This document shows, piece by piece, positions 9,645 through 39,369 of a stretch of 64,000 nucleotides of DNA (its first letter is position 1; each line of letters opens with the position of its first letter). This DNA comes from an uncultured Acidobacteriota bacterium (GTDB taxonomy: Bacteria > Acidobacteriota > Terriglobia > Terriglobales > Acidobacteriaceae). The stretch spans positions 37,283-101,282 of the forward strand of contig CAWFPZ010000019.1 in assembly GCA_963817835.1 (NCBI GenBank). The letters run 5' to 3'. The translations under genes were made by a program, and so were the position numbers. The notes below the pieces were generated by a model. That model did no database searches. It was not told the DNA's origin and saw only the letters and a program-made list of their open reading frames with translations.

Positions 9645-9833
9645 TGGGGAAGACTCCTGCCTAAATTGTACGGGGAATCGCGATTCCAGGCGAACCCGCG
9701 TACCGCCGGTCTCCTCACCGGCTGTAGTGCGGGCGTCCACGCCCGCACCTGTCCAAGGATCGTTTCGAAATCATGCGGTCAGGACATTTAGAATGCCAGC
9801 AGCACACTCCCACGTCCTTCGGAGCTCGCCCGC

Positions 9834-12921: not shown

Positions 12922-12926
12922 TTGCA

Positions 12927-13952: not shown

Positions 13953-14002
13953 CCGGCAATTTCGCGCATTGCGCTCTTCATGGCATGTGCCGATCCGTTT
14001 TG

Positions 14003-16139: not shown

Positions 16140-16166
16140 GTTGTGTTCTCAACTCACCGAAACTCT

Positions 16167-16220
16167 GGGTGCCCCACATCTCGCTTCTGAGATGTGGGAT
16201 ACCACCGACCTCAATTCCGC
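16167..16220 (+). repeat. REP-like GGGTGCCCC-hairpin element between mutA and scpA
   Basis: GGGTGCCCCACATCTC-GCTTCT-GAGATGTGGGATACCAC, nearly identical to the array unit at 29.9-30.3 kb. Confidence 0.85.
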
Positions 16221-16222
16221 TT

Positions 16223-17977
16223 TCAAATCAACAGTCTTTCCTGCCACTTCGTCAAAAACTCCACCGGATGACTGCGCACGTGCACGAAATCCGCAATTCC
16301 CGTCGCGCGTCAATTCCTCCGCGTTCTCGGGATTTCCCGCCACAATCACCGGCGTCTCGCGGCCCAGCGCTTTCAACTTCGGCATCAACTGCCGGCCAGC
16401 GCCGCATACTCCGCATCCGCGCTGCACAGCACAATCAAATCCGCGTCCGCCGCGGCAATCTCCTCGGCCTTCTTGAAGCGCCGCGTCTGCAATCTCGAAT
16501 CCCGCGCAGGCAAAGAAATTCGCCGCAAAATTCGCCCGCGCCGCGCGCATCTTCACGTCGCCAATCTCCGCCAGCAGCACCCGCGGCGTCTTGCCTCCCG
16601 CGGCCGCATGGCGCTCCGTGCGCAGCCGCAACTCCTCGTACGCGCCGCGCTCCGCGCAAATCGGCATTCATGCGCTGTTCGTCGACGCGGCCCAGCGCCC
16701 GCTCCGCCGGATTTGCATATTGATTCGTGCCCACCAACACGCGCCTCCGCGATGCAACTGCCTGCTCGCGCGCCGCCAGGCTCCGTTCCAGCGCCTGCGC
16801 AATCATTCCTTCGGCTTGCGCTTTGCGGAATCCGCCGCGCGCCTCAATCTCCTGCATCACGCTTCCAGCTCTCGCGCGCCAGAAAGTCGGTGATCGCCTC
16901 GAGAGCGTACGAGCCTCCGCCGGCATCGGCCACGCGGCCCAGCCACGCCTCGTGCTTCAGCAGCAGTTGCGTGTTCCGCGCCAGCCGCCGGCTCGCCTCA
17001 TCCGGCGCTTTGTAGCAGGCATCGAACGGCGTCACCGTCACTGCATCCGCTCCGCCCAGCACCGCGGCCATCGCCTCGGTGGTCGCGCGCAAAATGTTTA
17101 CGTGCGGATCGTAGACGGTCTTGTTCCATTTCGACGTGCGCGCCGCAATGCGCGCTCTCGCCGCCTCATGCGTGCCGCCAAAGCTCTCTACCGCCCGCGC
17201 CCACAGCATGCGGAATGCGCGGAACTTGGCGATCTCGAAGAAATAATTGGAGCCGACGGCGAAGCTGAATTCGAGCGCAGCCGCCGCGCGGTTCACATCC
17301 ACTCCGCGCTCCGCGAGCGCTGCCAGAAAATCCACTCCGGCCGCCAGCGCGAAGCCGGCTTCTTCAACGGCCGTCGCTCCCGCCTCGGCAAACGCTTCGC
17401 CGTGAATGGTGAACGGCACCAGTCCAGCCGGCGCGGCCATGATCGTCTCCGCCGCAAACTCCACGCTGGCCAGCGCATCGCATCCGGTTGAAATCTGTGC
17501 GGCATACGGCGTTCCATTCTGTCGCTCGATCAGCATCCGAAGCAGCGGTTCGTCGGCACGCTCAAAATGCACTGGAATCTCGTCGAGATGTCTCAGAGCA
17601 GTTTCGAGTTCACGCGTACTCTCGACCAAAATTCCGCTGAATGCAATTCCCTCGGCGCCCGCGGCCACCGCCGCGCACGCCATGCGATTGGCTTCTTCCG
17701 CATCCGCGGCGTCAATCTCCTCGCGAATCCGCCAGTCGCCGGTGGCGCGCGCGCCGCGCCGGTACGGAAAATCCCCCGGCGCCGTATCCACGCATGCCAG
17801 CCCCGCCAAATCCTCGGCGCGATAGAAGGGCTTTACTCCCAGCCCCTCGTCCGTCCGCCAAGTCAGTCTTTTCTCGGGATCGGCGCCCTTCAGGTCGCGC
17901 GCAATCGCCGCCTGCCACTCCGTTGTGCTCACCGGCGGGAACTCTTCAAGCAGACGTTCAGTGGCTATGGTTGTCAT
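16223..17977 (-). pseudogene. mutA: Methylmalonyl-CoA mutase small subunit, several apparent frameshifts in the 3' part
   Basis: EFPPVSTTEW…PFYRAED…PYRRG, NILRATTE, DAGGGSY, then VGTNQY, ARANFAANFF and LCSADAEY in shifted frames. Confidence 0.8.
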
Positions 17978-18424
17978 TTGTTCGCGGTGTCTTCCACCAT
18001 CTCGATCAAAACTCCGAATGCGCTTTCGGCCTTCGACTTGGGATGCACAAAAAACACCGTCGTTCCCCGCGAGCCTTTGCGCGGAGCCTCGTCAATCAGC
18101 TGAAATCCCTCGGCGCGCATCGCCGTCGAACGCGTGCTGCGCATTCTCCACGCGGAACGCCACATGCGCCAATCCGCCGCGCCCGCCGTTCTTGTCGATC
18201 AGCTTCTGCACCGGCGAATCCGCCGTCAGCGGTTCGAGCAGTTGGATCAGGTTCGGCCCCTCGCCGATCTGCAACAGCGCCTCGCGCACCTGGTCCTTTC
18301 CGTGCACCTCTTCGCGATGAATCTCCCTGAATCCCAAAGCCTCGTACGCCTTCACCTGGCCCTCAAGCTCGCCCTGCTTCACCGCGATCGCTACGTGATC
18401 CACAAACTTGGATCCCGGGAACAT
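17974..18424 (-). pseudogene. mce: Methylmalonyl-CoA epimerase, one apparent frameshift near 18130
   Basis: DHVAIAV, IQLLEP and GLAHVAFRV, then FVHPKS…GVLIEMVE in a shifted frame; ATGA overlap with mutA. Confidence 0.85.
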
Positions 18425-18483
18425 TCTTCAACTCTTCCTGCACGCCGTTCCTTTCAATCTCCTGGGCCGAGCTTCAGCCCGAC

Positions 18484-18861
18484 TTACTCAAACTCCACCA
18501 GCAACTGATTCACTTTCACGGGATCGCCCGGCTTCACATGCACGCTCTTCACCGTTGCCGCGCGCGGCGCCGTCACTTTGGTCTCCATCTTCATCGCTTC
18601 CAGAACCAGCATCAGCGCGCCCGCCTCCACAACCTGTCCCGGCTCGACGTTGACCGTGATCACCAGCCCCATCACCGGGCTGCGTGCACAGCTTTCTCGT
18701 CCGCATCCCACGTGCCGCCCGGGTTCTGTGCGTGTCCACTGGCTACGTCATGCGCCGCGTGGTGGGGCGAGTTGCTCCGGCGTCTGCTGGCTGTCCTCAT
18801 CTTCCAGAAGCTCTACGTCCACCGCGTACGCTTTGCCATCAATCGTGATCTGAAGCTTCAA
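18484..18861 (-). pseudogene. Biotin carboxyl carrier protein (1.3S-like), with apparent frameshift(s) in the linker
   Basis: AGGAGG RBS before TTG-KLQITIDGKAYAVDVE; the C-terminal frame has SPVMG…LEAMKME (biotinyl lysine)…VKVNQLLVEFE. Confidence 0.8.
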
Positions 18862-18907
18862 CCTCCTGCTTCCTTTCTCGCAAAATCTCTTGCTGCACTC
18901 ATCTTCA

Positions 18908-19347
18908 TTACCGGAGGTTGTGCGAGGTCTGCACAATCACCCGTCCCTGCTGCGCCCACGCGCCCGCGCTATCTTGCGCGATCGGCCAGCGGCTGTGCCG
19001 AGCGCACGCGCGCCTTCTTGCCCAGGAATACCGTTGCCGCAGCCGTCAGCGCGGCCACAATCTCCGGCTTGGTCTGTGCCGGCTTCGGGCTCTCTCGCGG
19101 TTTCCGCCGGCGCCGCGATCATCGGCACTTCGCCCGTAACTCGCGCTGCCTGCTGCCTGCTCAGTTCCGCCACGCGCGCCTGCAAAGCCTTCACCGTGGT
19201 CGCCATGGCGTTCAACTGCCGCTCCATGTCGCGCTGCCGTTCCCGCACGGCACGCCGCAGGACGCGCTCCAATCCGGTATAGATCGCCACACAGCCCGCG
19301 CCGGCAATCACCGCCATCACCGCCCAATCCGCCCCATGCAGCTTCAT
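18908..19347 (-). pseudogene. Small accessory subunit of the carboxyltransferase (OadG/epsilon-like), with an apparent frameshift near 19075
   Basis: N-terminal TM helix and coiled coil; the shifted frame gives EIVAALTAAATVFLG…AWAQQGRVIVQTSHNLR*. Confidence 0.6.
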
Positions 19348-19390
19348 GCGCTTCCTTTCATCTCGCGGCGCGAAATTCCGCCGCCGGATC

Positions 19391-20965
19391 TTAAAGCGGA
19401 ATCAATCCATGTTTCTTTTGCGGCCTGAGCTCGCGCTTCCCGTGCAGCGATTCGAGGGCCCGCGCCACCACTCTGCGCGTATCCGCCGGCTCAATAATGT
19501 CGTCTACCAGCCGTCGTCCCGCCGCCACATACGGATTCGCGAAAGTCTCGCGATACTCGTCCACAAGTTCCTTGCGCCGCATCGCCTCGTCCTCGGCCCC
19601 GTCAATCTCTCTGCGAAATACAATCTCGGCAGCGCCCTCGGCTCCCATCACGGCGATCTCTGCCGTGGGCCACGCCAGCACGCGATCCGCGCCCAGCCCG
19701 CGCGAGCACATGGCAATGTACGCGCCGCCGTAAGCCTTGCGCAGCACCACCGTAATCTTCGGCACCGTCGCCGCCGAATACGCAAACAGCAGCTTGGCCC
19801 CGTGGCGGATAATGCCTCCGCGCTCCTGCTCCACGCCCGGCAAAAATCCCGGCACATCCACAAACGTGAGCAGGGGAATGTTGAAGGCATTGCAAAAGCG
19901 CACAAACCGCGCCGATTTGTCCGAAGCATCGATGTCCAGTGCGCCTGCCATCACGCACGGTTGGTTGGCCACAATCCCTACGGACCGCCCTTGCAATCGT
20001 CCAAAGCCAATGACAATATTCGCGGCGAATCCCGGCTGAATCTCCAGAAAATCCTCGTTGTCCACCACGCGCAGAATCACGTCGCGCACATCGTAGGCCA
20101 CCTTCGGATCAACCGGCACAATCTTGTTCATCTCGGTGTCGGACTTCAGACGCCCGCTAAAAGCCCGATGCGGCGGATCTTCCAGATTGTTCGAAGGTAG
20201 AAAACTCAACAGCCGCTTGCACAGTTCGACGGCCTGCTGATCGTCGCGCGCAATCAGATGCACCACGCCCGAGTTGTTCATCTGCGAATGCGGCCCGCCC
20301 AGTTCCTCGGCGCTCACCTCTTCGCCCGTCACCTGCTTGATTACCTGCGGCCCGGTAATAAACATGCGCGCCTGCTCGGTCTGGATCACAAAGTCCGTAA
20401 GCGCCGGGCTGTAGGCCGCGCCGCCCGCGCACGGCCCGCAAATCAGCGCAATCTGCGGCACCGTTCCTGAAAGCATCACGTTGTTGTAGAACACGCGCGC
20501 GTATCCGGCCAGGCTGTCGATCCCCTCCTGCACGCGCGCTCCGCCCGAGTCGTTGATGAAGACAAACGGGCTGCCCGTCTTCAGGCTCATGGCCATCATG
20601 TCGGCCACTTTTTGGCAATGCGTTTCGCCGGCAGCGCCGCCAGCCACCGTGAAATCCTGGCTCGCCAGGTGCACCAGCCGTCCGTCGACGATCGCGCATC
20701 CCGTCACCACGCCGTCGGCCGGCAGTTCCTTCTCCGCCATGCCGAAGTACGTAGCCCGGTGTCGGCTAAACAACCCGATCTCCTCAAAGCTGCCCTTGTC
20801 CACAAGTCGGTCCACGCGCTCGCGCGCGGTGAGCTTGCCCGATTTGTGTTGCCGGTCGATGCGCTCCTGCCCGCCGCCCAGCTCCAACTCCGCGCGTTTC
20901 GCCTCCAGCTCCGCAACCTTGTCGTCCATGCTTTTCTTATGCGTAATTTCTTCCTGAGTCAGCAT
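19391..20965 (-). CDS. Acyl-CoA carboxyltransferase, methylmalonyl-CoA carboxytransferase 12S-like subunit
   Basis: GKLTARER, QDFTVAGG, DSGGARVQEG, GPCAGGAAYSPAL, VDVPGFLPG, RKAYGGAY and KKHGLIPL; intact 524 aa. Confidence 0.92.
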   Translation of the reverse strand: MLTQEEITHKKSMDDKVAELEAKRAELELGGGQERIDRQHKSGKLTARERVDRLVDKGSFEEIGLFSRHRATYFGMAEKELPADGVVTGCAIVDGRLVHLASQDFTVAGGAAGETHCQKVADMMAMSLKTGSPFVFINDSGGARVQEGIDSLAGYARVFYNNVMLSGTVPQIALICGPCAGGAAYSPALTDFVIQTEQARMFITGPQVIKQVTGEEVSAEELGGPHSQMNNSGVVHLIARDDQQAVELCKRLLSFLPSNNLEDPPHRAFSGRLKSDTEMNKIVPVDPKVAYDVRDVILRVVDNEDFLEIQPGFAANIVIGFGRLQGRSVGIVANQPCVMAGALDIDASDKSARFVRFCNAFNIPLLTFVDVPGFLPGVEQERGGIIRHGAKLLFAYSAATVPKITVVLRKAYGGAYIAMCSRGLGADRVLAWPTAEIAVMGAEGAAEIVFRREIDGAEDEAMRRKELVDEYRETFANPYVAAGRRLVDDIIEPADTRRVVARALESLHGKRELRPQKKHGLIPL

Positions 20966-21044
20966 TTCTTCACCTGGGGAAAATTGCGCAAACTCCCACT
21001 TTCTGCGCCTTCATGGCGCATTCCATCCTTGTTCGACCGCTGTC

Positions 21045-21088
21045 ATTCTATGCCCCTGCATAAAGGCTGGGATGTGATCAAGTTCACT
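21045..21088 (-). promoter_or_regulatory. Putative promoter of the methylmalonyl-CoA operon: TAGAAT -10 box plus a CRP/FNR/Rex-type palindrome
   Basis: TGTGA-TCAAGT-TCACT at 21073-21088, centred about -42 relative to the -10 box at 21045-21050. Confidence 0.5.
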
Positions 21089-21260
21089 CTCCACAAGCCC
21101 AAGGAAGCAGACGGGTTACCTGCCGATGAAAGGCCAGAAGGCAGGCCTTTTCGCCGACCCCAAAAGTGCGTCAAACGGCGGCAGCGGGCGCACGGCTGCG
21201 CGTGGCCGCACGGCCGGCTCGAAGTTCTCTCAGAACCTGCGCTTTTTCAATTGCATGCAG

Positions 21261-21300
21261 AAAGGGCGCGACCCGGCTTGTAAAAGCCGCTCGCGCCCTT
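21261..21300 (-). terminator. Intrinsic terminator-like hairpin downstream of the iol operon
   Basis: AAGGGCGCGA…TCGCGCCCTT 10-bp stem with an inner CGGCTT/AAGCCG stem and a short T run on the minus strand. Confidence 0.55.
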
Positions 21301-21315
21301 CGCAAGATACTTACT

Positions 21316-21359
21316 GTGCCCCATCCTTTCGCGGCATCTCGCGAAAGAGTGGGAGACCA
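21316..21359 (+). repeat. REP-like GTGCCCC-hairpin element variant
   Basis: GTGCCCCATCCTTTCGCG-GCATCT-CGCGAAAGAGTGGGAGACCA. Confidence 0.65.
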
Positions 21360-21391
21360 TGATCACTGGTTACAGCATCTGTAGTTCTGCT

Positions 21392-22681
21392 CTAAGAAAA
21401 CCGCGTCCTTCTCCACAGCAATGTTCCGCACAATCCCAGCGGAACCAGAGTTCCCACAATCAGCACAAACATCCACGGGAAGTTGACGCTGATGTGCTGC
21501 GCGCGCGTACCCACCGCCAGCCACACAAAGATGCCCGTGGCTGTCAGCATGATGAGCACTTCCCACCAGCGCCTCGGGTGCTTGTCGTCAGCCAGTGGAT
21601 CGTTGCCGGCCACCACGGCGGCCACATTGACTCTGTCGAGTTCATAGCGGTCGCATTCGCGATGCATGGCGTCGCGCCAGTTCTCCATCTCGGAAGGCGG
21701 AGGCTCGGCCATGCTGATCGATACCGCGCCCGCAATCATCACGGCCGATCCGGCAAGAATCAATATCCGTCCGCCGCTGGCCAGTCCCACAAATTCGCCA
21801 AAGACCAGCGCGCCCCACGCCAGTCCCCAAAGCTGGTTGGTGTTCGAGAGCGGAATACCGCGCCCGATGCCGATGTACTTGGCTGCATACTGCTGGAACA
21901 GATCGCCGATCACCCAGCAGAAGCCGCCCACAAACGGCCAGAACAGCATGGTCCGCGCCTGCTGCAGCTGCACCAGTACCGGCGCCATGCCGCCGCTGTT
22001 AATGGCCGTGAGCAGAGTGACGGTTCCCAGTTCGCCGAACGTGAAAATGGTCACGAACGACAGCGGATTCATGCCGCTGATGTAAGCCTTGCGGTAGGGA
22101 ATGTACATGGTGCCGAACATGCAGCCCGCGCCCAGTGCGGCAATGATGCCGGTAGCCGCCTTGCCCGGCGTGCCCGCATTCTGATGCGCCGTGGCCACGG
22201 CCAGCACCGCAGCTCCAAAGACAATCGCCCCCGCGCCGCCCACCACCTTGGCCCAGTTCTTTGCAGTCGATCCGTGCAGTTCTTTGAACAGCAGGCAGCC
22301 CCAAGCCAGCCCCACCAGGCTGTTCATGTTCCACAAGGGAAACGCAATCGCCAGGCCCACGTTGCGCACGCCGAAGATTGTCAGCGTGTTGCCCACCGCC
22401 CATAGCATTCCTGCCAGCAGCGCCCACACAATCAGGTGCGGCTTGGCACGTAAATCGTCGAACAGGAATCCCGTGCCCTTCAGCAGCGTGGGCACCGTCC
22501 AGCGCGCCACAAACGCGCCCATCACCATCCCCATGGAGATGATGAACGGCGAAAATCCCGCGTTCACCAGCTTGGTAGGCGCTTCCGCGCTGCCCAGCCA
22601 CACCGCGGCTGACAGTCCGCAAAACACGCCCAGTTTGTGCAACGAGATTGTCGACCGCGCCGCAATTGCGCCCTGGCTCAT
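21392..22681 (-). CDS. DMT superfamily (GlcU/RhaT/GRP-like) sugar transporter, putative inositol importer
   Basis: Two 5-TM repeats with GLAIAFPLWNMNSLVGLAWG and GRGIPLSNTNQLWGLAWG; last gene of the iol operon. Confidence 0.7.
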   Translation of the reverse strand: MSQGAIAARSTISLHKLGVFCGLSAAVWLGSAEAPTKLVNAGFSPFIISMGMVMGAFVARWTVPTLLKGTGFLFDDLRAKPHLIVWALLAGMLWAVGNTLTIFGVRNVGLAIAFPLWNMNSLVGLAWGCLLFKELHGSTAKNWAKVVGGAGAIVFGAAVLAVATAHQNAGTPGKAATGIIAALGAGCMFGTMYIPYRKAYISGMNPLSFVTIFTFGELGTVTLLTAINSGGMAPVLVQLQQARTMLFWPFVGGFCWVIGDLFQQYAAKYIGIGRGIPLSNTNQLWGLAWGALVFGEFVGLASGGRILILAGSAVMIAGAVSISMAEPPPSEMENWRDAMHRECDRYELDRVNVAAVVAGNDPLADDKHPRRWWEVLIMLTATGIFVWLAVGTRAQHISVNFPWMFVLIVGTLVPLGLCGTLLWRRTRFS

Positions 22682-22783
22682 CCTGTCACCTCAGCGTCAT
22701 CAACAGCGCGGTTCCCAGAATCAATACGACCACGGGCACCCACAGATGCACGTCGGTCAGGATGCAAACCAACTTCGATCGCT

Positions 22784-23806
22784 TCAAGCTTCCACCTCAG
22801 TCAATTTCACCGGCCGGTTCTCGTCGAACGACTTGCGCGCCGCCATCGCCATAATCACGGGCACGCGGCTATCGGCGCCCGTTACCGGCACAGGCTTGCC
22901 TTCCAGCACCGCATGCGTAAACTGCCTCACCTCTTCCGCAAAGCTGTCCGTGTAACGGTCCATGAAGAAATTCAACGGCAGATCGCTGTAAACGGATTCT
23001 CCCGTGCTCACCACAACCTGGTTGGGGAAGCGGTTTTCCGAAGCGATCTTGCCTTCGGTGCCCAGGATCTCCACGCGCTGGTCGTAGCCGAACACCGCCT
23101 TGCGACTGTTGTCAATGGTGCCGATAGCGCCGCTGCGGTAGCGTAGCGTAACCACGGCCGTATCCACGTCGCCCAGTTCGCCAATGGCCGGGTCGGCCAT
23201 CACGCCGGCCGCAGCGTACACCTCTTCCACCTCGTCGCCGGTCAAAAAGCGCGCCATGTCGAAATCGTGAATCATCATGTCCAGGAACATTCCTCCCGAC
23301 AAGCGTACAAACTCAATGGGCGGAGGCAGAGGATCGCGGCTGGTGATGTGCACCAGGCACGGCTTGCCGACCTCGCCGTTGATCACGGCCTTGCGCACCC
23401 GCGCGTAATTCGTATCGAAGCGCCGGTTGAAGCCGATCTGCAGCTTCACGCCGGCCTTCTTCACCGCCGCGAGCGCGGCATCAATCTGCTTGAGAGTGTA
23501 GGAAATCGGCTTTTCGCAAAAAATGTGCTTGCCCGCCTCTGCCGCGCGAATAATCAGGTCGGCGTGCGTGTCAGTCGACGAGCAGATCGCGACTGCCTCA
23601 ATGCGCTTGTCGCCAAGAATCTCATCCACGGAGCTCGCCACGTTAGGAATGCCAAAATCTGCCGCGAGTTTTTCAGCCGTCTCGCGATTGACGTCGAAAA
23701 CGGAGACAATCTCTGCCTCCGGAATTTGAAACGCGAGCGATTTCGCATGAACTCGCCCAATCCGTCCCGCTCCAATAACTCCGAAATGAAGTTTCTTCCC
23801 GCTCAT
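22784..23806 (-). CDS. iolG: myo-Inositol 2-dehydrogenase
   Basis: GAGRIG, HIFCEKP, GFNRRFD, SRDP and GGMFLDMMIHDFD; Gfo/Idh/MocA family within the iol cluster. Confidence 0.92.
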   Translation of the reverse strand: MSGKKLHFGVIGAGRIGRVHAKSLAFQIPEAEIVSVFDVNRETAEKLAADFGIPNVASSVDEILGDKRIEAVAICSSTDTHADLIIRAAEAGKHIFCEKPISYTLKQIDAALAAVKKAGVKLQIGFNRRFDTNYARVRKAVINGEVGKPCLVHITSRDPLPPPIEFVRLSGGMFLDMMIHDFDMARFLTGDEVEEVYAAAGVMADPAIGELGDVDTAVVTLRYRSGAIGTIDNSRKAVFGYDQRVEILGTEGKIASENRFPNQVVVSTGESVYSDLPLNFFMDRYTDSFAEEVRQFTHAVLEGKPVPVTGADSRVPVIMAMAARKSFDENRPVKLTEVEA

Positions 23807-23851
23807 AATCTCTCCCCAAAATCGGCTTTCAGCTCTCAGCTGTCAGCATGT

Positions 23852-23919
23852 GAAGGGGCACGACTTCAGTCGTGCCGTAATTCTCGCAAAATGAGTGGTG
23901 GGCTTTAGCCCCTGAGGGA
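23852..23919. repeat. GAAGGGGCACGACTTCAGTCGTGCC…GGCTTTAGCCCCTGAGG REP-like element
   Basis: GGCACGACT/AGTCGTGCC stem; related hairpin at 53726-53753. Confidence 0.7.
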
Positions 23920-24001
23920 ACTCAACCAAAGCCGATTAACCCATTTTTTGCACCGTACCCTAATAAACCGTCGCTCCCCGCCGTACGGAAAAAGCTGGAA
24001 G

Positions 24002-24961
24002 CTAGGAGCTGGAAGCCAGCAGCTGTTCCTGCACAAAATTCGCCTCAATCGAACGAATATACTCCCGGTTCCGCGCCGCACTTTCCTTCGGCGTGCCCAT
24101 TCCCGGAAGAATATCCTGCTCCACCAGCACGTATCCCTTGTAGTCGCGGCGTGCGAGCCAGCGTAACAGGGCAGGGAAGTCCACGCATCCTTTGCCCAGT
24201 TCACAGTACACTCCGTGCCGCATGCCCGTGAAGTAGTCCCACTCCTCCTCGCGGCTGCGGCGCGCCACGTTGGGCTCAATATCTTTCAAATGGATGTACC
24301 AGACGCGCTCCTTGAAGCGCTCGAGAGCCGCCACCAGGTCGATGTCCTCGCGGCCGGTTCCGTGAACATAGTGGCCCGCGTCGAACACCAGTCCCAGTCG
24401 CTCCGGATTGGTTCCATCGAGCAGCGTCGCAATCTCGTCCGGCGTCTCCACGTAGCCCGCGCAGTGATGATGAAACACCGTGCGCAGTCCGGTCTCGTCA
24501 AACACCGCGTGCGCAATCCGATCGGCGCCGCCGGCAAAAGTCTTCCACTCGTCCTTGTTCAGTCCTGCGCTCGCGGGCACGCGCCCGGCGAGCTTGGTGC
24601 GTCGCGCATCGGTCCCGTTGTCGTCGGCCAGCACCAGGAACGGCGCCGGCGTCGTGGCCACAGCCGCAATCAGCCGCGCCGTCCTCACAGCCCTTGCCGT
24701 GCCCTCCGCATGCGCCAGCGGATTCTTCAGCTCCACCGGCACAAACGCGCCCAGCATCGCCACGTTGTTCCGCTTCGTCAGTTCCTCGCTCAGCTGCACC
24801 GGGTCGGTGGGCATGTAGCCCCAGTCGCCCAATTCCGTTCCGGTGTAGCCCGTCTCCACCAACTCGTCCAGCATTTGCGTCGACGGAATCGCCTGGCTCT
24901 GGTCCTGGTGCTCCAGCGTGCCCCACGAACAGGGTGCATTGCCAACCAGCAACTCTTTCAT
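24002..24961 (-). CDS. iolE: myo-Inosose-2 dehydratase (IolE/MocC family TIM barrel)
   Basis: GNAPCSWG, GTELG, VFHHHCAGYVET, HLKD, CELGKG and VEQD motifs. Confidence 0.85.
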   Translation of the reverse strand: MKELLVGNAPCSWGTLEHQDQSQAIPSTQMLDELVETGYTGTELGDWGYMPTDPVQLSEELTKRNNVAMLGAFVPVELKNPLAHAEGTARAVRTARLIAAVATTPAPFLVLADDNGTDARRTKLAGRVPASAGLNKDEWKTFAGGADRIAHAVFDETGLRTVFHHHCAGYVETPDEIATLLDGTNPERLGLVFDAGHYVHGTGREDIDLVAALERFKERVWYIHLKDIEPNVARRSREEEWDYFTGMRHGVYCELGKGCVDFPALLRWLARRDYKGYVLVEQDILPGMGTPKESAARNREYIRSIEANFVQEQLLASSS

Positions 24962-25020
24962 ATCGTCTCCTTGCTTCCCGCGGGTTTTCAGTCTCAGTGC
25001 TTTACTTCAACGGTTGACGA

Positions 25021-25034
25021 TTTACACGTGTGCA
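25021..25034. promoter_or_regulatory. LacI-type operator candidate upstream of iolE
   Basis: TTTACACGTGTGCA, 12/14 match to TGCACACGTGTGCA. Confidence 0.6.
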
Positions 25035-25045
25035 TCACAGACTAA

Positions 25046-25080
25046 AAAGCTAGCAGCTAGAAGCTAGCGGCTAGTAGCTG
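25046..25080. repeat. Degenerate heptamer tract (AGCTAGC/AGCTAGA)
   Basis: Next to the iolA stop codon; a similar tract lies at 23993-24023 around the iolE stop. Confidence 0.65.
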
Positions 25081-25084
25081 TCTT

Positions 25085-26551
25085 TCAGAACTTCCGGCTC
25101 CACTCCTTCGGCCACCGTTCCACAACGACCTTGGTTTGCGTAAAGAACTCCACTGCGTGGTGCGCCTGCGCATGCAGATCGCCGAAAAAGCTTTCGCCCC
25201 ACCCGCTGAACGGGAAGGTTGACATCGGCGCGGCCACGCCCACGTTAATGCCCACATTGCCCGCTTGCACCTCGTAGCGGAAGCGCCGTGCATTGGCGCC
25301 GTCGGTGGTGAAGATGCAGGCCATGTTGCCATAGCTGCGTCCATTCACCAGCGCAATCGCCTCTTCAATGGTCTGTGCATGGATCAGGCTCAGCACCGGC
25401 CCAAAGATCTCCGTTCGCGCCGTCTCGGAATCAGGCGGCACATCGTCCAGCACCGTAGGCAGCACGAAATAACCATCCTCGTAGCCGTCCACTTTTTTGC
25501 CGCGCCCATCCACCACCACGCGCGCGCCGGCCTGTTCGCCCTTCGCGATCAGCCCTTCGATCCGCGTCTTGCTCTCGGCGGAAATCACCGGGCCCATCTC
25601 CACATCCGGCAACGCGCCGTAACCCGTCTTGCGGCTCTGGGCCGCCGCCACAATCCGATCCGTGAATGTGCGCGAATCGCCCACGGTAATCGCCACCGAT
25701 GCCGCCAGGCATCGCTGTCCCGCGCAACCAAACGCGGAATCAGCCAGAATCCGCGTCGTCATCTCCATGTCCGCATCCGGCATCACCACCACCGGATTCT
25801 TCGCGCCGCCCTGGCACTGCGCGCGTTTCCCATTCGCAGCTGCCCGGCTGTAAACGTACTTCGCCGTCGGCGTCGATCCCACAAAACTCACTGCCTTGAT
25901 GCCCGGATGATCCAGAATCGCATTCACCGCATCACGTCCGCCGTTCACCAGTTGCATCACGCCCGGCGGGAATCCCGCTGCCTGAATCAGCTCGAACAGT
26001 TTCTGCGACGTGATCGGTACGCGCTCCGACGGCTTCAGCAAAAAGCAGTTGCCCGCCGCTACCGCGTAGGGGAAAAACCAGAACGCGATCATGCCCGGAA
26101 AATTGAACGGCACAATCGCCGCCACCACGCCCAGGGGTTGCCGGATCATGTGCTCGTCGATGCCCCGCGCAATGTCCTCGCAATTCGTGCCCTGCATCAT
26201 GATCGGCATGGCGCACGCCGTTTCCACGTTTTCCACTGCGCGCAGAATCTCCGCGCGGCTCTCCACCAGCGTCTTGCCGCATTCTCTCGTGATAGACAGC
26301 GCGAGTTCTTCGCGATGCTGCTCCAGCAGCGTCTTCAGCCGGAACAGCGGCTGAATCCGGTCCACCACCGGCGTCCGCCGCCACTCGATAAACGCCCGCT
26401 CCGCCGCTTCCACCGCAGCATTCACGTCCGTCGCCGGCGAAAGCGGAACCTCCACCAGCACCTTGGCCGATGCGGGATCGATTACGTTCAGCGCATTCGT
26501 TGCGCTCGAAGCGCGCCATCCTCCATCAACAAAATTCTGCAACCGCTCCAT
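25085..26551 (-). CDS. iolA: CoA-acylating (methyl)malonate-semialdehyde dehydrogenase
   Basis: [35 protein letters not shown] (catalytic Cys), EIFGPV and FSGW; start placed at MERLQNF. Confidence 0.92.
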
Positions 26552-26610
26552 AGAGAACCTCCGTCTCATCGAAACCGAAATGTAGCGCCGGTCTCCAGAC
26601 CGGCTGTCGT

Positions 26611-26648
26611 GGGGTGCCCCGTCCAAGCTTTGCTTGGGCGGGTGTAGC
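26611..26648 (+). repeat. REP-like GGGTGCCCC-hairpin element between iolD and iolA
   Basis: GGGGTGCCCCGTCCAAGC-TTT-GCTTGGGCGGGTG. Confidence 0.7.
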
Positions 26649-26664
26649 TCCCTTGCTCCCTGTA

Positions 26665-28542
26665 TCAAAGATGATGCCGTTCGCGCTTGCGCGCTTCTTC
26701 ATAGCGTGCTCTCGCCTCGCGCACGCTCTCCAGTTCCGAAACTTCCGCTACCGCAACATCCCACCAGGACTCGTATCCCGGCACGCCGGTTGACGTATCC
26801 GTTTCCACTACAATCACCGTGGTGCGGTCCAGCGTCTTCGCTTTCTCGAGGGCTTGCTTCAGTTCATCCAATGTACCAGCAGTCAACGCATATGCGCCCA
26901 GGCTGCGCGCGTTGGCCGCAAAGTCCACCTTCAGCACATCGCCGTCCAGTTGTTTACTCGCTTCGTTGCGTGCGCGATACCGCGTTCCGAACCCGCCCTG
27001 CCCTAATGACCGGCTCAGGCTGCCGATCGAGGCGAACCCGTGATTGTCCACCAGCACGATGATGATCTTGATCCCCTCCTGCACGGACGTCACAATCTCC
27101 GTGGGCATCATCAGATACGTGCCGTCGCCCAGGAACACGTAGACTTCGCGGCTGGGATCGGCCAGCTTCGCGCCCATGGCGCCCGGAATCTCGTACCCCA
27201 TGCACGAGTAGCCGTATTCCATGTGATAGCCGTTGGGTGTGCGCGTGCGCCACAGCTTGTGCAGATCGCCGGGATGGCTGCCCGCGGCCGACAGCAATAC
27301 GTCACGCTCGCCCGCAGCCGCCCATAGCGCGCCAATCACTTCGCTCTGCGCGGGTTTGCCCCCGCCGTTCGAATTTTGACTGTTCAGATGAAAGAGCCGC
27401 TCGACCTCCGCGTCCCACTCGACGCGCAACCCCGCAATCTCCGCAGCATACTTCGCGCCCACCGTGTGTCCGGCGAGCGCCGCGCCCAGTTCCTCCAGCG
27501 CCACGCGAGCGTCGGCAACCACGGGAATCGCGCCCACCTTGTACGCGTCAAACTCCGCGGTGTTGATATTCACAAACTTCACTGCCGGATTCTGAAACGC
27601 CGTCATCGAGGCCGAAGTGAAATCGGAGTAGCGCGTCCCGATGCCGATCACGAGATCGGCGGAGTTCGCCAAGCGGTTCGCAGCCAGCGTGCCCGTGGCT
27701 CCGATGGCGCCCACCTCCTGCGCATGATCCCACGCAAGCGACCCCTTGCCTGCCTGTGTCTCTGCCACAGGGATTCCGGTCTTGGTTGCGAATTCACTCA
27801 GCGCCTGCGACGCCTCGCTCATCAGCACGCCGCCGCCGGCCACAATCAGCGGCCGTTCCGCGCCGCGGATGGCAGCAATGGCACGCTCCAACGAAACGCG
27901 ATCCGGTTGTCCGCGCCGGATCAGCCACACGCGTTTTTCAAAAAGCTCTTCGGGATAGTCGTAAGCTTCGGTCTGCACATCCTGCGGCAGCGCCAGCGTC
28001 ACCGCGCCGCAATCCGATGGCGAGGTCAGCACGCGCATCGCCTCAGGCAGCGCCGTAATCAGTTGTTCCGGTCTGTAAATGCGGTCCCAGTAGCGCGACA
28101 CCGGCTTGAAGCAGTCGTTCACGCCCGTGTCTTGCGTGGTCGGCGACTCAATCTGTTGCAGTACCGGCGCCACGTTGCGCCGCGCAAAAATGTCTCCGGG
28201 CAACAGCAGCACCGGCAGCCGATTGATGGTGGCCAGCGCCGCGCCCGTAATCATGTTCGTCGCGCCCGGCCCGATCGAAGAGGTGCAGGCAAAGGTTCGC
28301 AGCCGGTTGCTCGCCTTGGCAAATCCCGCGGCCATGTGCACGCCCGCCTGCTCGTTGCGCACAAGAATGTACGGGAAATCGGGATTCTGCTGCAACGCCT
28401 GCCCGATCCCTGCCACGTTGCCGTGCCCAAAAATCCCCAGCATGCCCGCGAAGAATGCATGCTCGCGCCCATCCCGCTCCACATATTGCTGCTTCAGGAA
28501 CTGGATGAGCGCCTGGGCCATCGTGATGCGCCGCGTCTTCAT
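26665..28542 (-). CDS. iolD: 3D-(3,5/4)-trihydroxycyclohexane-1,2-dione acylhydrolase
   Basis: [41 protein letters not shown] and GDGTYLM (ThDP motif). Confidence 0.96.
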
Positions 28543-28611
28543 ACGTACTCCCCCGACCCCCGCGACTACATTTTCACTTTTTTTACTTTTTCGCTCTCTT
28601 CACTTCTTCAC

Positions 28612-28708
28612 GGTTCCTTGGTCCCTAGTCCCTAGTCCCTAGTCCCTACGTCCCTAGTCCCTACGTCCCTAGTCCCTACGTCCCTAGTCCCTACGTCCCT
28701 GGTCCCTA
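28612..28708. repeat. Heptamer tract (GTCCCTA)n with a 15-bp higher-order period
   Basis: About 12 GTCCCTA units; after the first four they occur as C+(GTCCCTA)2; runs into the iolB stop codon. Confidence 0.9.
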
Positions 28709-29527
28709 TCTCTTAACCATCGGCAACCGCGGATCCTTTTCCTTCCAGCCGCCGCGCACCCATGCGTAGTTGGGATCGTCTGAAGCCGCCAGCGACCGCG
28801 CCGATCCCGCAAGCGCGTTCAAATAGTAGACGTTGTATCCGTGCGCGGCCACCACCGGATGATAACCCTCCGGCACCAGCACCAGTTCGCCGTCGCGCAC
28901 CGTCATGGTTTCGTCGATGCGCCCGTCCGCCGTGTACACCTTCTGCACCGCATATCCCTCCGGCCGCTGAATCCGGTAATAGTAAATCTCTTCCAGATCC
29001 ACTTCTCCCGGCGGGTTATGCACGTCGTGCTTGTGCGGCGGAAAGCTCGACCAATTGCCCGCTGGCGTAAACACCTCCACCACCATCAGCCGGTGCGCCA
29101 GAAACTCCGGCGGCAACATGGAATTGATTTGCCGCGTCGCATTTCCGCCCCCGCGAATCTCGATGCCCACGTGCGCCGGCGTTACCAGCCGCGCCGGGTA
29201 CTCGTCCTCGGCCTTTGCGTAGCAAAACGCCAGGTCGCAGGCCGCATCGGCGCTCACAGTGAAACGAGTGCGGACAGGCAGGTAAAGCGTATAAGGCAGC
29301 CCGTCAAAAACCGTTGCGCGCTGCCCAAACCTATGCCACTCGCCCCGCGAGCTCGTTACCGAGCAAACGCCGCCCAACACCACAATGGCCAGTTCGCGGT
29401 TGGCTGTTTCGCCGCTGTACTTCTGGCCGGCTTCCATCTTCCGAGTCTCAAACGATAAAAATTCGTATCCGAAACTATCAATCCGGTCGCGGAACGTCTC
29501 GGGCCGGACAAGCAGGTCACTCATCAT
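28706..29527 (-). CDS. iolB: 5-deoxy-glucuronate isomerase
   Basis: EVFTPAGNWSSFPPHKHD, LEEIYYYR and GYHP motifs of the KduI/IolB family. Confidence 0.95.
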   Translation of the reverse strand: MMSDLLVRPETFRDRIDSFGYEFLSFETRKMEAGQKYSGETANRELAIVVLGGVCSVTSSRGEWHRFGQRATVFDGLPYTLYLPVRTRFTVSADAACDLAFCYAKAEDEYPARLVTPAHVGIEIRGGGNATRQINSMLPPEFLAHRLMVVEVFTPAGNWSSFPPHKHDVHNPPGEVDLEEIYYYRIQRPEGYAVQKVYTADGRIDETMTVRDGELVLVPEGYHPVVAAHGYNVYYLNALAGSARSLAASDDPNYAWVRGGWKEKDPRLPMVKR

Positions 29528-29602
29528 CTCTCCAGGGGGAGCTTACGCAAAACGCCGGCAAATGGAACACGGGCCCATGCCGAACGAAAAGACAAGCAAA
29601 GT

Positions 29603-29652
29603 TGCACACGTGTGCACCTTTCCATCATCCTATGCCTCCGACCGCCTGTCAA
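29603..29652 (-). promoter_or_regulatory. iol operon promoter (TTGACA-17-GATGAT) with a perfect operator TGCACACGTGTGCA at about +1 to +14
   Basis: -35 box at 29647-29652, -10 box at 29624-29629, palindrome at 29603-29616. Confidence 0.7.
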
Positions 29653-29880
29653 CAGAAATACCGGTCTCTTCGGTAACCGGTTTCTTGCCCGTATCTTGTG
29701 GAGACAAAGGTCGCATTGCCACAACAACTTACCCACCCGGCCCAGCACTTATTTCTGCCGCGAAAGCAGATTCGAAATCATAGCATCCCCATCGCCCACC
29801 CAGTCGCGATGCTCCCTATCCGATCTGTCATCTTGACCGAAGTCGAAAGACCTGCGGCCGTTTTGCCAACTCAACCCAGC

Positions 29881-30320
29881 ACGAAAAGGGGTGCCCCACA
29901 TCTCGCTTCTGAGATGTGGCAAACCACGAACCCAGGCAGCCCCATTCAACCCCGCACGAAAAGGGGTGCCCCATATCTCGCTTCTGAGATGTGGGAAACC
30001 ACGAACCCAGGCAGCCCCATTCAACCCCGCACGAAAAGGGGTGCCCCATATCTCGCTTCTGAGATGTGGGAAACCACGAACCCAGGCAGCCCCATTCAAC
30101 CCCGCACGAAAAGGGGTGCCCCAGATCTCGCTTCTGAGATGTGGGAAACCACGAACCCAGGCAGCCCCATTCAACCCCGCACGAAAAGGGGTGCCCCACA
30201 TCTCGCTTCTGAGATGTGGGAAACCACGAACCCAGGCAGCCCCATTCAACCCCGCACGAAAAGGGGTGCCCCACATCTCGCTTCTGAGATGTGGGAAACC
30301 ACGGACCTCAACTCCCCCGC
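29881..30320 (+). repeat. Tandem array of a 75-bp unit carrying the GGGTGCCCC hairpin (5 full units and 1 partial)
   Basis: Units start at 29881, 29956, 30031, 30106, 30181 and 30256; linkers are identical; SNPs occur only in the stem. Confidence 0.95.
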
Positions 30321-30356
30321 TCCCTAGCTCCCTCGTTCCCTCGCTCCCTGTACTTC

Positions 30357-30405
30357 TTGACCCCCGCCAATTCCCGGTGCTACGGTTTGTATGCACACGT
30401 TTGCA
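30357..30405 (+). promoter_or_regulatory. Transaldolase promoter (TTGACC-18-TACGGT) with operator TGCACACGTTTGCA
   Basis: -35 box at 30357, -10 box at 30381, and a 13/14 operator match at 30392-30405 just before the GGAGG RBS. Confidence 0.65.
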
Positions 30406-30420
30406 CCCGCCGGAGGAATC

Positions 30421-31523
30421 ATGGCTCCCGTTACCCCCTCGCTCCAATTCAAAAGCCCGCTCCACAAAATGACGCAGACCACCCCCACCTACCTCTGGAA
30501 CGACTCGGCCTCCGTTGAAGAGCTCACCTACTCCATCGCGCACGGCGCAGTCGGCGCCACCTGCAACCCGTCCATCGCCGTCAGCGTCCTCAAGCACGAG
30601 CTCCCCGCCTGGAAGCCGCGCATCCTCGAGCTCGCCGCCGCTGAGCCCGAACTCACTGAGGACGGTCTCGCCTGGCGCATCGTCGAAGAGATCTCGGCCA
30701 ACGCCGCGCGCCTGCTCCTGCCCATCTTCGAGCGCGAAAAAGGCCGCAACGGCCGCCTCTCCATCCAAACCGACCCGCGCAACTATCGCAACACCGCCGC
30801 CATGCTCGAGCAGGCCATCCATTTCAGCCAGCTCGCGCCCAACATGATCGTCAAAATCGCCGCCACGCACGCCGGCCTCGCCGCCATGGAAGAGGCCACG
30901 TACCGCGGCATCAGCATCAACGCGACTGTCAGCTTCACCCTGCCGCAGGCCATCGCCGTAGCCGAAGCCGTCGAGCGCGGCCTCAACCGCCGCGAAGCCG
31001 AGGGCCTCGACATTTCGACGATGGGCCCGGTCTGCACCATCATGGTCGGCCGCCTCGACGACTGGCTCAAAGTCCTCCACGACAAGCACAATCTCTCCGT
31101 CGATCCCGGCTACCTCGAGTGGGCCGGCGTCGCCGTCTTCAAGAAGGCCTATCAGATTTATCAAGCCCGCGGCTATCGTCTGCGCCTGCTCTCCGCGGCC
31201 TTTCGCAATCACATGCACTGGAGCGAATTCATCGGCGGCGACGTCGTCATCTCGCCGCCCTGCGTCTGGCAAAAGCGCTACAACGCCAGCGACATCGAAG
31301 TCATCGACCGCATCTCCACGCCCGTCGACCCGCTCATCGTCTCCACGCTCCTCGACAAGTTCCCCGACTTCGCCCGCGCCTGGAACGAGAACGGCCTGAC
31401 CCCCGCCGAGTTCGACACCTTCGGCAGCACGCGCCGCACCCTCCGCGAGGATTCATCGCCGCCGTAGCCGAGATGAACGCCATCGTCCGCGACGTGATCC
31501 TGCCGAACCCGGATACGGAATAG
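30421..31523 (+). CDS. Transaldolase-family protein (non-canonical), with an apparent frameshift near 31447 in the last ~25 codons
   Basis: LWND, TCNPS, VKIAAT (Schiff-base Lys), SINATVSF and MVGRLDDWL; the annotated frame stops at 31467 and the shifted frame continues …FIAAVAEMNAIVRDVILPNPDTE*. Confidence 0.8.
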
Positions 31524-37622: not shown

Positions 37623-38228
37623 CTACTTGATCCACATCTCCGGATGGCTGGTGGACACGGCGCTCAGTCCCTGTTCGAGCAGCGCTTCCACTTCCTTCAT
37701 ATTGGAGATCAGCCCGCCGCCAACGACCGGCAGATCGGGATTGATGGCGCGCACTCGGTCCAGCATCTTGGGCGCGACCAGCGCGGGCAGAATCTCCAGC
37801 GCATGCACCGGCGTATTGCGCAGCTGATTCGAGATGGTATCCATGGCGCCGCTATCGAGCAGAAAGGTGCGCTGGATGCCGTAGAGCCCGATGGCCAGCG
37901 CGTGGCGCAGCGGGTCGAGGTGCGTGGAGATGATGCCGCCCGCGCCCACGCGCTTGAGGTAATTGACCGCGTACTTGTCGCGCGAGAAGCCGTTGAGCAG
38001 ATCGAGATTGACGATCGCCACCTTGCCCGCGGCGGTGATCTTCTGGATCATCGGCTCGATGGTATCCGGATCGCCGGTGAGCAGATAAATCAGCCGGCTG
38101 CGCGACGCGATGGCAAGCTCCACAAGATCCGGCTTGCGAATGGCGGGGAGAATCGGCGTCTCCGCGCAGAACACGCGCAGCGGAGTCAGCGGCGGCGGCG
38201 TTCCGTTTCTTACAACGGCGTCAGACAT
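37623..38228 (-). CDS. Glycerol-3-phosphate-responsive antiterminator, GlpP/YgcP family
   Basis: IVNLDLLNG, GIISTH, IQRTFLLDS, EILP, GGGLI and AVSTSHPEMW; its start overlaps the lacI stop (ATGTCTGA). Confidence 0.85.
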   Translation of the reverse strand: MSDAVVRNGTPPPLTPLRVFCAETPILPAIRKPDLVELAIASRSRLIYLLTGDPDTIEPMIQKITAAGKVAIVNLDLLNGFSRDKYAVNYLKRVGAGGIISTHLDPLRHALAIGLYGIQRTFLLDSGAMDTISNQLRNTPVHALEILPALVAPKMLDRVRAINPDLPVVGGGLISNMKEVEALLEQGLSAVSTSHPEMWIK

Positions 38229-39339
38229 GCGTCCCTCCGAGTGGGGCATGATGTCCGTCCCGCTTCTGCGCTTTTCCTGTCGATCCTCTTACCATCAATT
38301 CCGCCTCCACTTTCACCTGCACCACCGACTCCTGGCCCGACATCAGCTTGAACAAATTCTCCATCGCCAACTGTCCCATGCGCCGCATGGGCTGCCGCAC
38401 CGTGGTCAGAGTGGGCGTGAGATACGCGGCAAAAAACAAATCGTCGAATCCCGTCACTGAAACATCCTCAGGCACCTTGAGCCCGCGCGCGCGGATCGCC
38501 CGCATCGCGCCCAGCGCCGTCATGTCGTTGTAGCAGACGATCGCGGTCGGCGGATGCTTCAACTGCAGCAGCGCATCCGTCGCCTTGCCCGCCGCTTCCG
38601 GCCGGCTGTCGCCCTCGACTGCCAGCTCCGGCGCAAAGCCGATCCCCGCTTTCGTCAGTGCCTCTTTGTATCCCGCGAGCCGCTCCGCATCGGATTGGTA
38701 TCCGCCGCGATCGCCGAGATACGCAATTCGCCGATGTCCCAACTCGATCAGGTGCTCCGTTGCCGCGCGCGTTCCTTCCTGGTTCGCGATCATGACCGAG
38801 TGCACAAACTCGCCGGAAGCCTGGTCGTTCACCAGCACGATGGGAACCTGCAGCTCCTTGAGCAGCGGCATATACAACGCGCCCACGCGCGACGACGTGA
38901 CAACGATTCCATCCACGCGCCGCTCGGCAAACTCCTGCACCACTTTGCGCTCGCGCTCCGGATCGGCGTGCGAGTTGGCCAGGAACACCGCATAGTTGTG
39001 ATCGTTGGCAATCTCCTCAATGCCGCAAGCCACTTCGCTGGCAAACGGATCGTCGACCGTAGTCACCACGAGGCCGATGGTTCGCGTCCGTCGCGTCACC
39101 AGGCCGCGCGCAACCGCGCTGGCGCGGTATCCCGCGTCTTCGGCGATCTTGCGGATCTTGGCCGCAGTTGCCGCATTCACCAGGGGACTGTTCTGCAGGG
39201 CGCGCGAAACCGTAGGGTGCGAAACCCTCGCCAGCCGCGCAATGTCCTTGATGGAAGGCTGCCGCGAAGGTTGCCGTGGCACGCGCTTCATGCCCGCATG
39301 CGGAACTCCTGCCGACTTGCCTCCGTCCTTCTCCACCAT
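38221..39339 (-). CDS. LacI family transcriptional regulator (candidate IolR)
   Basis: SIKDIARLARVSHPTVSRAL HTH, ARGL hinge, YNDMTALG, SVTGFDD and LTTVRQP; AGGAG RBS before the ATG at 39339. Confidence 0.95.
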   Translation of the reverse strand: MVEKDGGKSAGVPHAGMKRVPRQPSRQPSIKDIARLARVSHPTVSRALQNSPLVNAATAAKIRKIAEDAGYRASAVARGLVTRRTRTIGLVVTTVDDPFASEVACGIEEIANDHNYAVFLANSHADPERERKVVQEFAERRVDGIVVTSSRVGALYMPLLKELQVPIVLVNDQASGEFVHSVMIANQEGTRAATEHLIELGHRRIAYLGDRGGYQSDAERLAGYKEALTKAGIGFAPELAVEGDSRPEAAGKATDALLQLKHPPTAIVCYNDMTALGAMRAIRARGLKVPEDVSVTGFDDLFFAAYLTPTLTTVRQPMRRMGQLAMENLFKLMSGQESVVQVKVEAELMVRGSTGKAQKRDGHHAPLGGTHV

Positions 39340-39355: not shown

Positions 39356-39369
39356 TGCACACGTGTACG
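39356..39369. promoter_or_regulatory. LacI-type operator candidate upstream of lacI-glpP
   Basis: TGCACACGTGTACG, 12/14 match to the palindrome. Confidence 0.6.

Follow-up and report, generated by a model that had tools for sequence, protein, structure and literature searches.

A long transaldolase-like subfamily linked to inositol catabolism and complementary to the IolC kinase in Acidobacteriota

We analysed a 64,000-nucleotide stretch of the genome of an uncultured soil bacterium of the Acidobacteriota (C19:37283-101282, hereafter the window), which carries a cluster of inositol catabolism (iol) genes without the IolC kinase or a class II IolJ aldolase and, under the same operator, a divergent transaldolase-like gene (open reading frame (ORF) 30391-31467, plus strand). 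Comparative genomics supports a reading in which this gene encodes a class I (Schiff-base) enzyme of the transaldolase/fructose-6-phosphate aldolase (TAL/FSA) fold that takes over the lower inositol pathway, because its orthologues are associated with iol genes in a variety of arrangements, some are fused to IolE, the operator is conserved and the distribution is complementary to that of IolC. We consider it probable that the enzyme takes unphosphorylated 2-deoxy-5-keto-D-gluconate (DKG) and releases malonate semialdehyde for IolA, finishing inositol catabolism without a kinase. A first-pass annotation of the window had proposed a class I aldolase converting DKG, phosphorylated or not, to malonate semialdehyde; the core of that proposal is supported by the comparison, whereas its residue argument was half wrong, the active-site pair being Gln/Met.

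The iol cluster, its operator and the absent lower-pathway genes

The window belongs to a 5.32-Mb genome (G000; 34 contigs, 61% GC, 99.4% complete) with close homologues recorded under the name Terracidiphilus sp. (Acidobacteriaceae). Its iol genes lie on the minus strand in two groups, iolB-iolD-iolA and, after a short gap, iolE-like-iolG-transporter. As the first-pass annotation had listed them, iolG, iolD, iolB and iolA are clustered there, and all four exceeded their NCBIfam cut-offs: iolB (28706..29527), the 5-deoxy-glucuronate isomerase that makes the ketose DKG (TIGR04378, 327 bits against a cut-off of 205); iolD (26665..28542), trihydroxycyclohexane-1,2-dione hydrolase (TIGR04377, 940 against 715); iolA/mmsA (25085..26668), a CoA-acylating malonate or methylmalonate semialdehyde dehydrogenase (TIGR01722, 545 against 448); and iolG (22784..23806), inositol 2-dehydrogenase (TIGR04380, 458 against 355). 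The fifth gene on that list was also found, as an iolE-like inosose dehydratase (24002..24961) with a xylose-isomerase-like TIM barrel (PF01261), whose best NCBIfam match (TIGR04379, 171 bits) stays below its own cut-off of 290.

The kinase and aldolase of the lower pathway had been reported missing from the window, and neither a PfkB gene nor a class II aldolase was found anywhere on its contig. A whole-genome search of G000 for IolC gave a best TIGR04382 match of 105 bits against a cut-off of 300, the matches being generic PfkB kinases on other contigs; there are six PfkB-family genes in the genome, none of them near any operator site. The single class II aldolase gene (PF01116) encodes a fructose-bisphosphate aldolase (FBA) at C6:140067, with no operator nearby, so that no iolC and iolJ under the operator of the iol cluster were found elsewhere in G000. 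The best G000 match to DUF2090 (PF09863) scored 23 bits, below cut-off, on another contig. A canonical transaldolase is encoded on C15 (298 bits on PF00923); the iol-linked gene is thus an extra paralogue, and the notion that it could be the sole transaldolase of the genome was ruled out.

The transaldolase-like gene is transcribed divergently from iolB and matches TAL_FSA (PF00923) with 133.5 bits against a gathering score of 27, covering profile positions 1-279 of 285. Translation almost certainly begins with the ATG at 30421, since this is preceded by GGAGG and the 366-aa orthologues begin with MAPV. That it carries the same operator as the iol genes, as first noted from the window alone, was borne out across species. 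The exact palindrome TGCACACGTGTGCA lies upstream of iolB (29603..29616), and a copy with one mismatch, TGCACACGTTTGCA, occupies 30392..30405, 29 nt upstream of the ATG of the transaldolase-like gene; operator-like sites with two mismatches were found in the iolA-iolE intergenic region (25021..25034) and upstream of a lacI-glpP-like gene pair (39356..39369), the latter with a matching site in related loci. These four sites compare with 0.36 expected, and four were reached in none of 100 shuffles. Of 80 related species loci, 51 have the TGCACACGTGTGCA word upstream of the orthologue, at a distance of 25-150 nt, usually with a second copy before iolB and a third before lacI. This phylogenetic footprinting, which extends beyond one genome, supports shared control of the iol operons and the transaldolase-like gene. 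A LacI-family regulator encoded at 38221..39339 on the minus strand (PF00356 and Peripla_BP domains), which recurs in 50 of the 80 loci, is the candidate repressor for the palindrome; a LacI-type repressor binding TGCACACGTGTGCA would co-regulate both the transaldolase-like gene and the iol operons.

Elsewhere in G000, an operator-like site with one mismatch (C6:153425-153438; L011:7426) is flanked by a chlorite-dismutase-like gene on one side and a VTT-domain gene on the other; the VTT-domain gene is in turn followed by the gene for myo-inositol-1-phosphate synthase (ino1). About 0.85 such sites would be expected by chance genome-wide, and the link to inositol is suggestive.

Gene linkage and phyletic pattern

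The related loci were found with a single protein, P0003, as query, and the set of 80 species-level loci is restricted to relatives 69-100% identical; it spans Acidobacteriaceae, Bryobacterales, Acidoferrales, Vicinamibacteraceae and two Verrucomicrobiota. Whereas iolB, iolD, iolE or iolG was present within 10 kb in 51-56 of the 80 loci, IolC was present within that distance in none. Unbiased clustering of the neighbouring ORFs returned, by frequency, IolG, IolD, IolB, IolE, LacI, IolA, a transporter and a GlpP-like protein, and no conserved kinase or other aldolase was found among the neighbours of the 80 loci.

Within iol clusters the orthologues occur in at least six gene arrangements. The layout of the window, divergent from iolB, is repeated in L015 (82% identity), while G168 has iolD-TAL-iolE with a divergent iolB, L018 has iolB-TAL-iolA (51% identity) and L118 has iolD-iolE-iolB-TAL (47% identity to the fusion query P0131). 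TAL is followed by an aldehyde dehydrogenase gene beside iolD, iolB and iolG in L031, and it follows an iolD fragment in L117. Three proteins (P0131, P0344 and P0345, mutually 44-50% identical) are IolE::TAL fusions encoded in iol operons, at least two of them between iolD and iolB. The subfamily as a whole comprises 344 representative clusters (50% identity) at E<=1e-30; in a sample of 201 Acidobacteriota genomes its members scored 288-519 bits on the subfamily profile, as against at most 135 bits for canonical Tal and Tal-Pgi fusions, a clean separation from ordinary transaldolases.

IolC was followed in these organisms by whole-genome searches, in which a true IolC gives about 1e-100. At a threshold of E<=1e-40, IolC was found in none of 50 genomes that carry the transaldolase-like gene beside iol genes, and it was absent also from G000, G032 and G168, making 0 of 53 carriers. 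Among the 201 evenly sampled Acidobacteriota, six genomes encode both IolB and IolD; three of these have the transaldolase-like gene without IolC and three show the reverse, with IolC beside iolB/iolD. The phylogenetic profile against loss of iolC, which had been proposed as a check, therefore came out as complementary, with IolC in 0 of 53 carriers and in 3 of 3 non-carrier iol genomes of the 201-genome sample. IolC and the transaldolase-like gene are complementary solutions in Acidobacteriota, and the pattern was seen as well at two Verrucomicrobiota loci and on several metagenomic contigs.

Active site, fold and proposed reaction

Residues were assigned by hidden Markov model alignment to solved transaldolases and by alignment with the canonical Tal of G000 itself. 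Both confirmed that Gln126, in GRLSIQTDPR, takes the place of the catalytic Glu96 of TalB. The second position of the pair turned out differently. The first-pass annotation had read the Phe of SINATVSF as the counterpart of TalB Phe178, a residue equivalent to FSA Tyr131, on the SPFVGR/APYVNR strand; that Phe was misaligned, and the position is held by Met218 in CTIMVGRLDD. The proposed Gln/Phe signature was accordingly rejected in favour of Gln/Met, which also departs from the FSA signature, Gln59 with the catalytic Tyr131. The remainder of the active site is kept: the Schiff-base Lys132 (K155, VKIAAT), Asp17 (D38, WNDS), Asn35 (N59, CNPS), Asn154/Thr156 (N177/T179, NATV) and the anion-binding Arg181/Arg228 (R221/R272). 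Across a set of 31 representatives reaching down to 31% identity, the Gln that stands for Glu96 is almost never replaced, most sequences have Met in place of Phe178, and the consensus reads x-x-M-x-G-R-L-D-D; a subfamily-specific R-x-H-x-H-W motif places H-x-H-W after the distal (second) Arg.

The protein failed the cut-offs of the canonical transaldolase models (NF002881, 110 against 367 bits; TIGR00876, 80 against 234; TIGR00874, 58 against 396) and of FSA (TIGR00875, 37 against 246), and at 348-366 aa it is of the long type, FSA having about 220 aa. No match to the class II FBA fold (PF01116) was found in it. The AlphaFold model of P0003, a 93%-identical orthologue of 366 aa (predicted local distance difference test score 96.7), superposes best on long transaldolases, with a template modelling score of 0.83 for C. 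glutamicum 3r5e and about 0.8 for Neisseria 3clm, and did not superpose on the short FSA/TalC type. The structural comparison suggested from the outset thus placed it with the long transaldolases, and on alignment and model the protein is a predicted Schiff-base enzyme of a distinct long-transaldolase subfamily within PF00923.

A more distant TAL-like clade of 28-31% identity was seen in L021 (G135; 9366-10421) and L022 (G190; 9614-10663), adjoining a major facilitator superfamily sugar transporter or an aldehyde dehydrogenase resembling methylmalonate semialdehyde dehydrogenase. Its members keep the Gln and the Lys, have Asn for Asp17 (WINN/WVNN) and have lost Arg181 (HIAGIYDD); this clade probably does different chemistry.

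Enzymes of the TAL/FSA family need an open-chain 2-ketose with a free C1 hydroxyl and a D-threo 3,4-diol, which DKG offers and DKG-6-phosphate does not. Read from C6, DKG presents a CH2OH, a keto group and the 3S,4R diol of D-fructose, its carboxylate taking the place of the phosphate in fructose 6-phosphate. IolB, the maker of this ketose, is retained in the iol clusters that contain the transaldolase-like gene, and the genome-wide lack of IolC favours an unphosphorylated substrate. In the proposed route, IolG, IolE, IolD and IolB would convert inositol to the ketose-acid DKG; the enzyme would form a Schiff base at C5 of DKG, cut the C3-C4 bond and release malonate semialdehyde, which IolA would convert to acetyl-CoA. 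The dihydroxyacetone unit would stay on the lysine, and the two kept Arg residues could bind the carboxylate of DKG. In a transaldolase mode the unit would pass to glyceraldehyde 3-phosphate (G3P) or erythrose 4-phosphate, giving fructose 6-phosphate (F6P) or sedoheptulose 7-phosphate, whereas in an aldolase mode hydrolysis would set it free as dihydroxyacetone, in the manner of FSA. We slightly favour transfer, because the Tyr of FSA is absent, no Dak1/DhaK-type dihydroxyacetone kinase was found in G000 and no kinase is conserved nearby. Free dihydroxyacetone or glycerol is a possible product; a bona fide glycerol kinase is present in G000, so that the kinase content of the genome does not separate the two modes, and a GlpP-like homologue of the glycerol-3-phosphate antiterminator belongs to the regulon of the Terracidiphilus group.

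A number of observations weigh against this assignment. The 53 carrier genomes are phylogenetically clustered and do not amount to 53 independent events. A metagenomic operon on a 1.18-Mb contig (L030) has the order iolG-TAL-iolC-iolD-iolE-iolB, its transaldolase-like protein being 59% identical with the same active-site motifs and its PfkB gene having a typical IolC N-terminus. Kinase and enzyme therefore coexist in some organisms, where the substrate could be phosphorylated; in L030 either the enzyme also takes a phosphorylated substrate or IolC has another role. Of the acid/base residues known in the superfamily, neither the Glu of transaldolases nor the Tyr of FSA is present, so that catalysis would need another acid/base arrangement. 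Close orthologues also occur in genomes or loci without any iol genes. G123 (L019:8597-14614) has a 67%-identical orthologue and no iolB or iolD genome-wide; at this locus it is preceded by a Zn-dependent alcohol dehydrogenase (Zn-ADH), with a TIM-barrel protein, an aldo-keto reductase and a GFO/IDH oxidoreductase as further neighbours. L032 is a cluster of a short-chain dehydrogenase/reductase (SDR), TAL and an aldehyde dehydrogenase (ALDH) with a tripartite ATP-independent periplasmic (TRAP) transporter and no iol genes. Finally, the window's own copy carries a frameshift that strips most of its C-terminal helix (335-359 of the model).

These non-iol loci suggest additional roles for the subfamily in other routes for polyols or keto-acids, and the family is not restricted to inositol. 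The gene is paired with an aldehyde dehydrogenase in L029, L032, L063, L064 and L081-L083, some with an SDR, and in L026 (6813-11672) a Zn-ADH is accompanied by a tandem pair of TAL_FSA genes as well as a Lar_N gene. The most constant partners of the family are a dehydrogenase, which could make the ketose, and an aldehyde dehydrogenase, which could consume the released aldehyde; the persistence of the latter even outside iol clusters fits a released acid-aldehyde. A single exclusive group of iol-linked members was rejected, as orthologues of 62-67% identity lie outside iol clusters and members of 41-51% identity inside them.

The frameshift raises the question of whether the window's copy is a decaying pseudogene, the iol cluster being non-functional at its last steps and the association historical only. 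A 2-nt insertion plus a substitution at 31444-31455 (insertion near 31447-31451) gives CGCGAGGATTC in the window where all relatives aligned have CGCCAGTTC, and removes the last 23 residues; the displaced 3' end, 31452..31523 on the plus strand, holds these last 23 codons, which encode FIAAVAEMNAIVRDVILPNPDTE, in another frame. The assembled ORF stops at 31467, and the end at 31523 given in the first-pass annotation is reached only across the frameshift. Up to that point, in contrast, the ORF is intact, its third-position GC content being 0.87 and its identity to intact orthologues 93-96%, and all other iol genes and the operators are intact too. The lesion may be real in this strain or a local error in an assembly that contains redundant strain-variant contigs. 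Loss of function in this copy is unlikely in our view, and the frameshift bears on the window's copy, not on the family.

It is improbable, and a little more so, that the enzyme replaces IolJ only, as a class I aldolase cleaving DKG-6-phosphate to dihydroxyacetone phosphate and malonate semialdehyde after phosphorylation by an unrecognised kinase such as a KdgK-like PfkB. The operon of L030, where a genuine IolC-like PfkB gene directly follows TAL and no IolJ was found in 21 kb, would fit such an arrangement, as would the six PfkB-family genes of G000, and loss of the negative Glu near the donor C1 could leave room for a phosphate. Set against this, IolC is missing from all 53 carrier genomes, no kinase is conserved in the 80 neighbourhoods, no PfkB gene lies near the operators and the best PfkB of G000 is just 26% identical to the IolC of L030. 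The conserved Arg pair, moreover, sits at the distal end, where DKG has its carboxylate, and to our knowledge no TAL/FSA-family enzyme uses a C1-phosphorylated donor.

Least probable is an ordinary pentose-phosphate transaldolase isozyme or sugar-phosphate aldolase induced to rebalance central metabolism, with the lower pathway run by moonlighting PfkB and class II FBA enzymes: the Pfam family and fold are those of transaldolases, class II FBAs have been proposed as IolJ stand-ins in Dysosmobacter (PMC13311982) and the generic PfkB kinases and class II FBA of G000 could in principle moonlight, a further point against our assignment, but a canonical Tal is already present, the protein reaches only 110 of the 367 bits of the transaldolase cut-off with the catalytic Glu missing, and the reading would not account for the IolE fusion, the positions within iol operons or a distribution complementary to that of IolC.

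A kinase-free cleavage of DKG may also be one instance of something broader. We tentatively suggest, as a possibility held with less than even confidence, that long 'Gln/Met' transaldolases form a widespread unnamed group using non-phosphorylated keto-acid or ketose donors. In iol clusters they would convert DKG and G3P to malonate semialdehyde and F6P, a third, kinase-free route, and the same chemistry would recur in dehydrogenase-TAL-ALDH modules with Zn-ADH or SDR partners and TRAP transporters, through an acid/base arrangement unlike those of TalB (Glu) and FSA (Tyr).

In its upper part and in IolA the gene set follows the canonical pathway of B. subtilis (PMC9430895). As in the B. subtilis/Salmonella pathway (IolG, IolE, IolD, IolB, IolC, IolJ, IolA), these genes are clustered here and the expected products are malonate semialdehyde and a C3 unit; unlike in that pathway, IolC and a dedicated class II IolJ are absent, a TAL/FSA-fold enzyme is in the regulon and the substrate is probably unphosphorylated. 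An IolC-DUF2090 fusion has been proposed from fitness data as an alternative DKG-6-phosphate aldolase (PMC9007349). It too is a non-IolJ, class I-type answer to the aldolase step found by gene association; it is, however, LacD/DeoC-like and kinase-fused, with a phosphorylative route, whereas the enzyme described here belongs to PF00923 in a genome without DUF2090. By analogy, the closest functional counterpart would be sulfofructose transaldolase (SftT/BmSF-TAL, PDB 8bc3), which takes a non-phosphorylated, anionic-tailed ketose, and hands its dihydroxyacetone unit on to G3P; the acid-aldehyde that it releases is then oxidised by a dehydrogenase. That enzyme is short (about 220 aa) and of the decameric type, while the protein here is of the long type and is nearest the C. 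glutamicum and Neisseria transaldolases; the match between the two is weak and spans about 70 residues (E about 1e-6). The protein here shares with E. coli TalB and FSA their fold, Schiff-base Lys and Asp/Asn/Thr residues, and its Gln at the Glu96 position is as in FSA and in engineered TalB E96Q variants (E96Q/F178Y: PDB 4rz5, 4rz6, 9qpk); it differs from both in the Met at Phe178/Tyr131, in having neither Glu nor Tyr as acid/base and in the R-x-H-x-H-W motif after the distal Arg. A full-text literature search, with subscription journals outside its scope, found no paper tying a transaldolase-family enzyme to inositol catabolism. Comparative genomics gives good support to the prediction of a new variant in a textbook pathway, using a new functional subfamily of a known superfamily.

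If the proposal is right, one kinase-free enzyme would replace both IolC and IolJ, the superfamily would gain a new reaction with a catalytic make-up of neither Glu nor Tyr, and unphosphorylated keto-acids would become accessible to a biocatalyst for C-C bond chemistry. A major carbon source, myo-inositol derives from phytate and from the organic matter of plants and soil, and its pathway is used for genome-based phenotype prediction, with IolC typically counted as a core gene. Prediction of inositol use would then change in Acidobacteriota and other phyla, as surveys that require iolC would miss the carriers.

Neighbouring genes and minor observations

The transporter gene of the second iol group (21392..22681, minus strand; PF06800 and PF07857), of the GlcU/RhaT type, adjoins iolG in 36 of the 80 loci and is likely the inositol importer. 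Overlapping the lacI stop is a GlpP-like (G3P_antiterm) gene (37623..38249, minus strand; PF04309, 159 bits), which is kept with lacI in 25 of the 80 loci. No glp genes were found near this pair (37623-39339), which could tie inositol catabolism to the handling of glycerol or dihydroxyacetone. In loci of the Acidoferrales type, still more divergent iolE/iolG-like paralogues (36-38% identity) lie directly upstream of the transaldolase-like gene.

Directly adjoining the iol transporter is a methylmalonyl-CoA carboxyltransferase/mutase operon (12927-20965 in the window), an arrangement seen also in about 25 related loci. At the unrelated locus L031 (5683-9168), a carboxyltransferase, together with the beta and gamma subunits of OAD, is divergent from TAL-ALDH. 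Such neighbours may link malonate semialdehyde or malonyl-CoA to energy conservation by decarboxylases.

Three contigs of the assembly are redundant with C19: C31 corresponds to 12869-27327 of the window (92.8-98.8%), C33 to 36439-60458 of the window (99.7%) and C4 to the start of C19 (99.6%). They are probably strain variants binned together, and none of the three covers the transaldolase-like gene. The divergent region between the iolB operator and the transaldolase operator is filled by a 75-bp tandem array (29871-30307) of 5.8 copies at 98% identity, with the hairpin GGGGTGCCCCACATCTCGCTTCTGAGATGTGGG in each unit.

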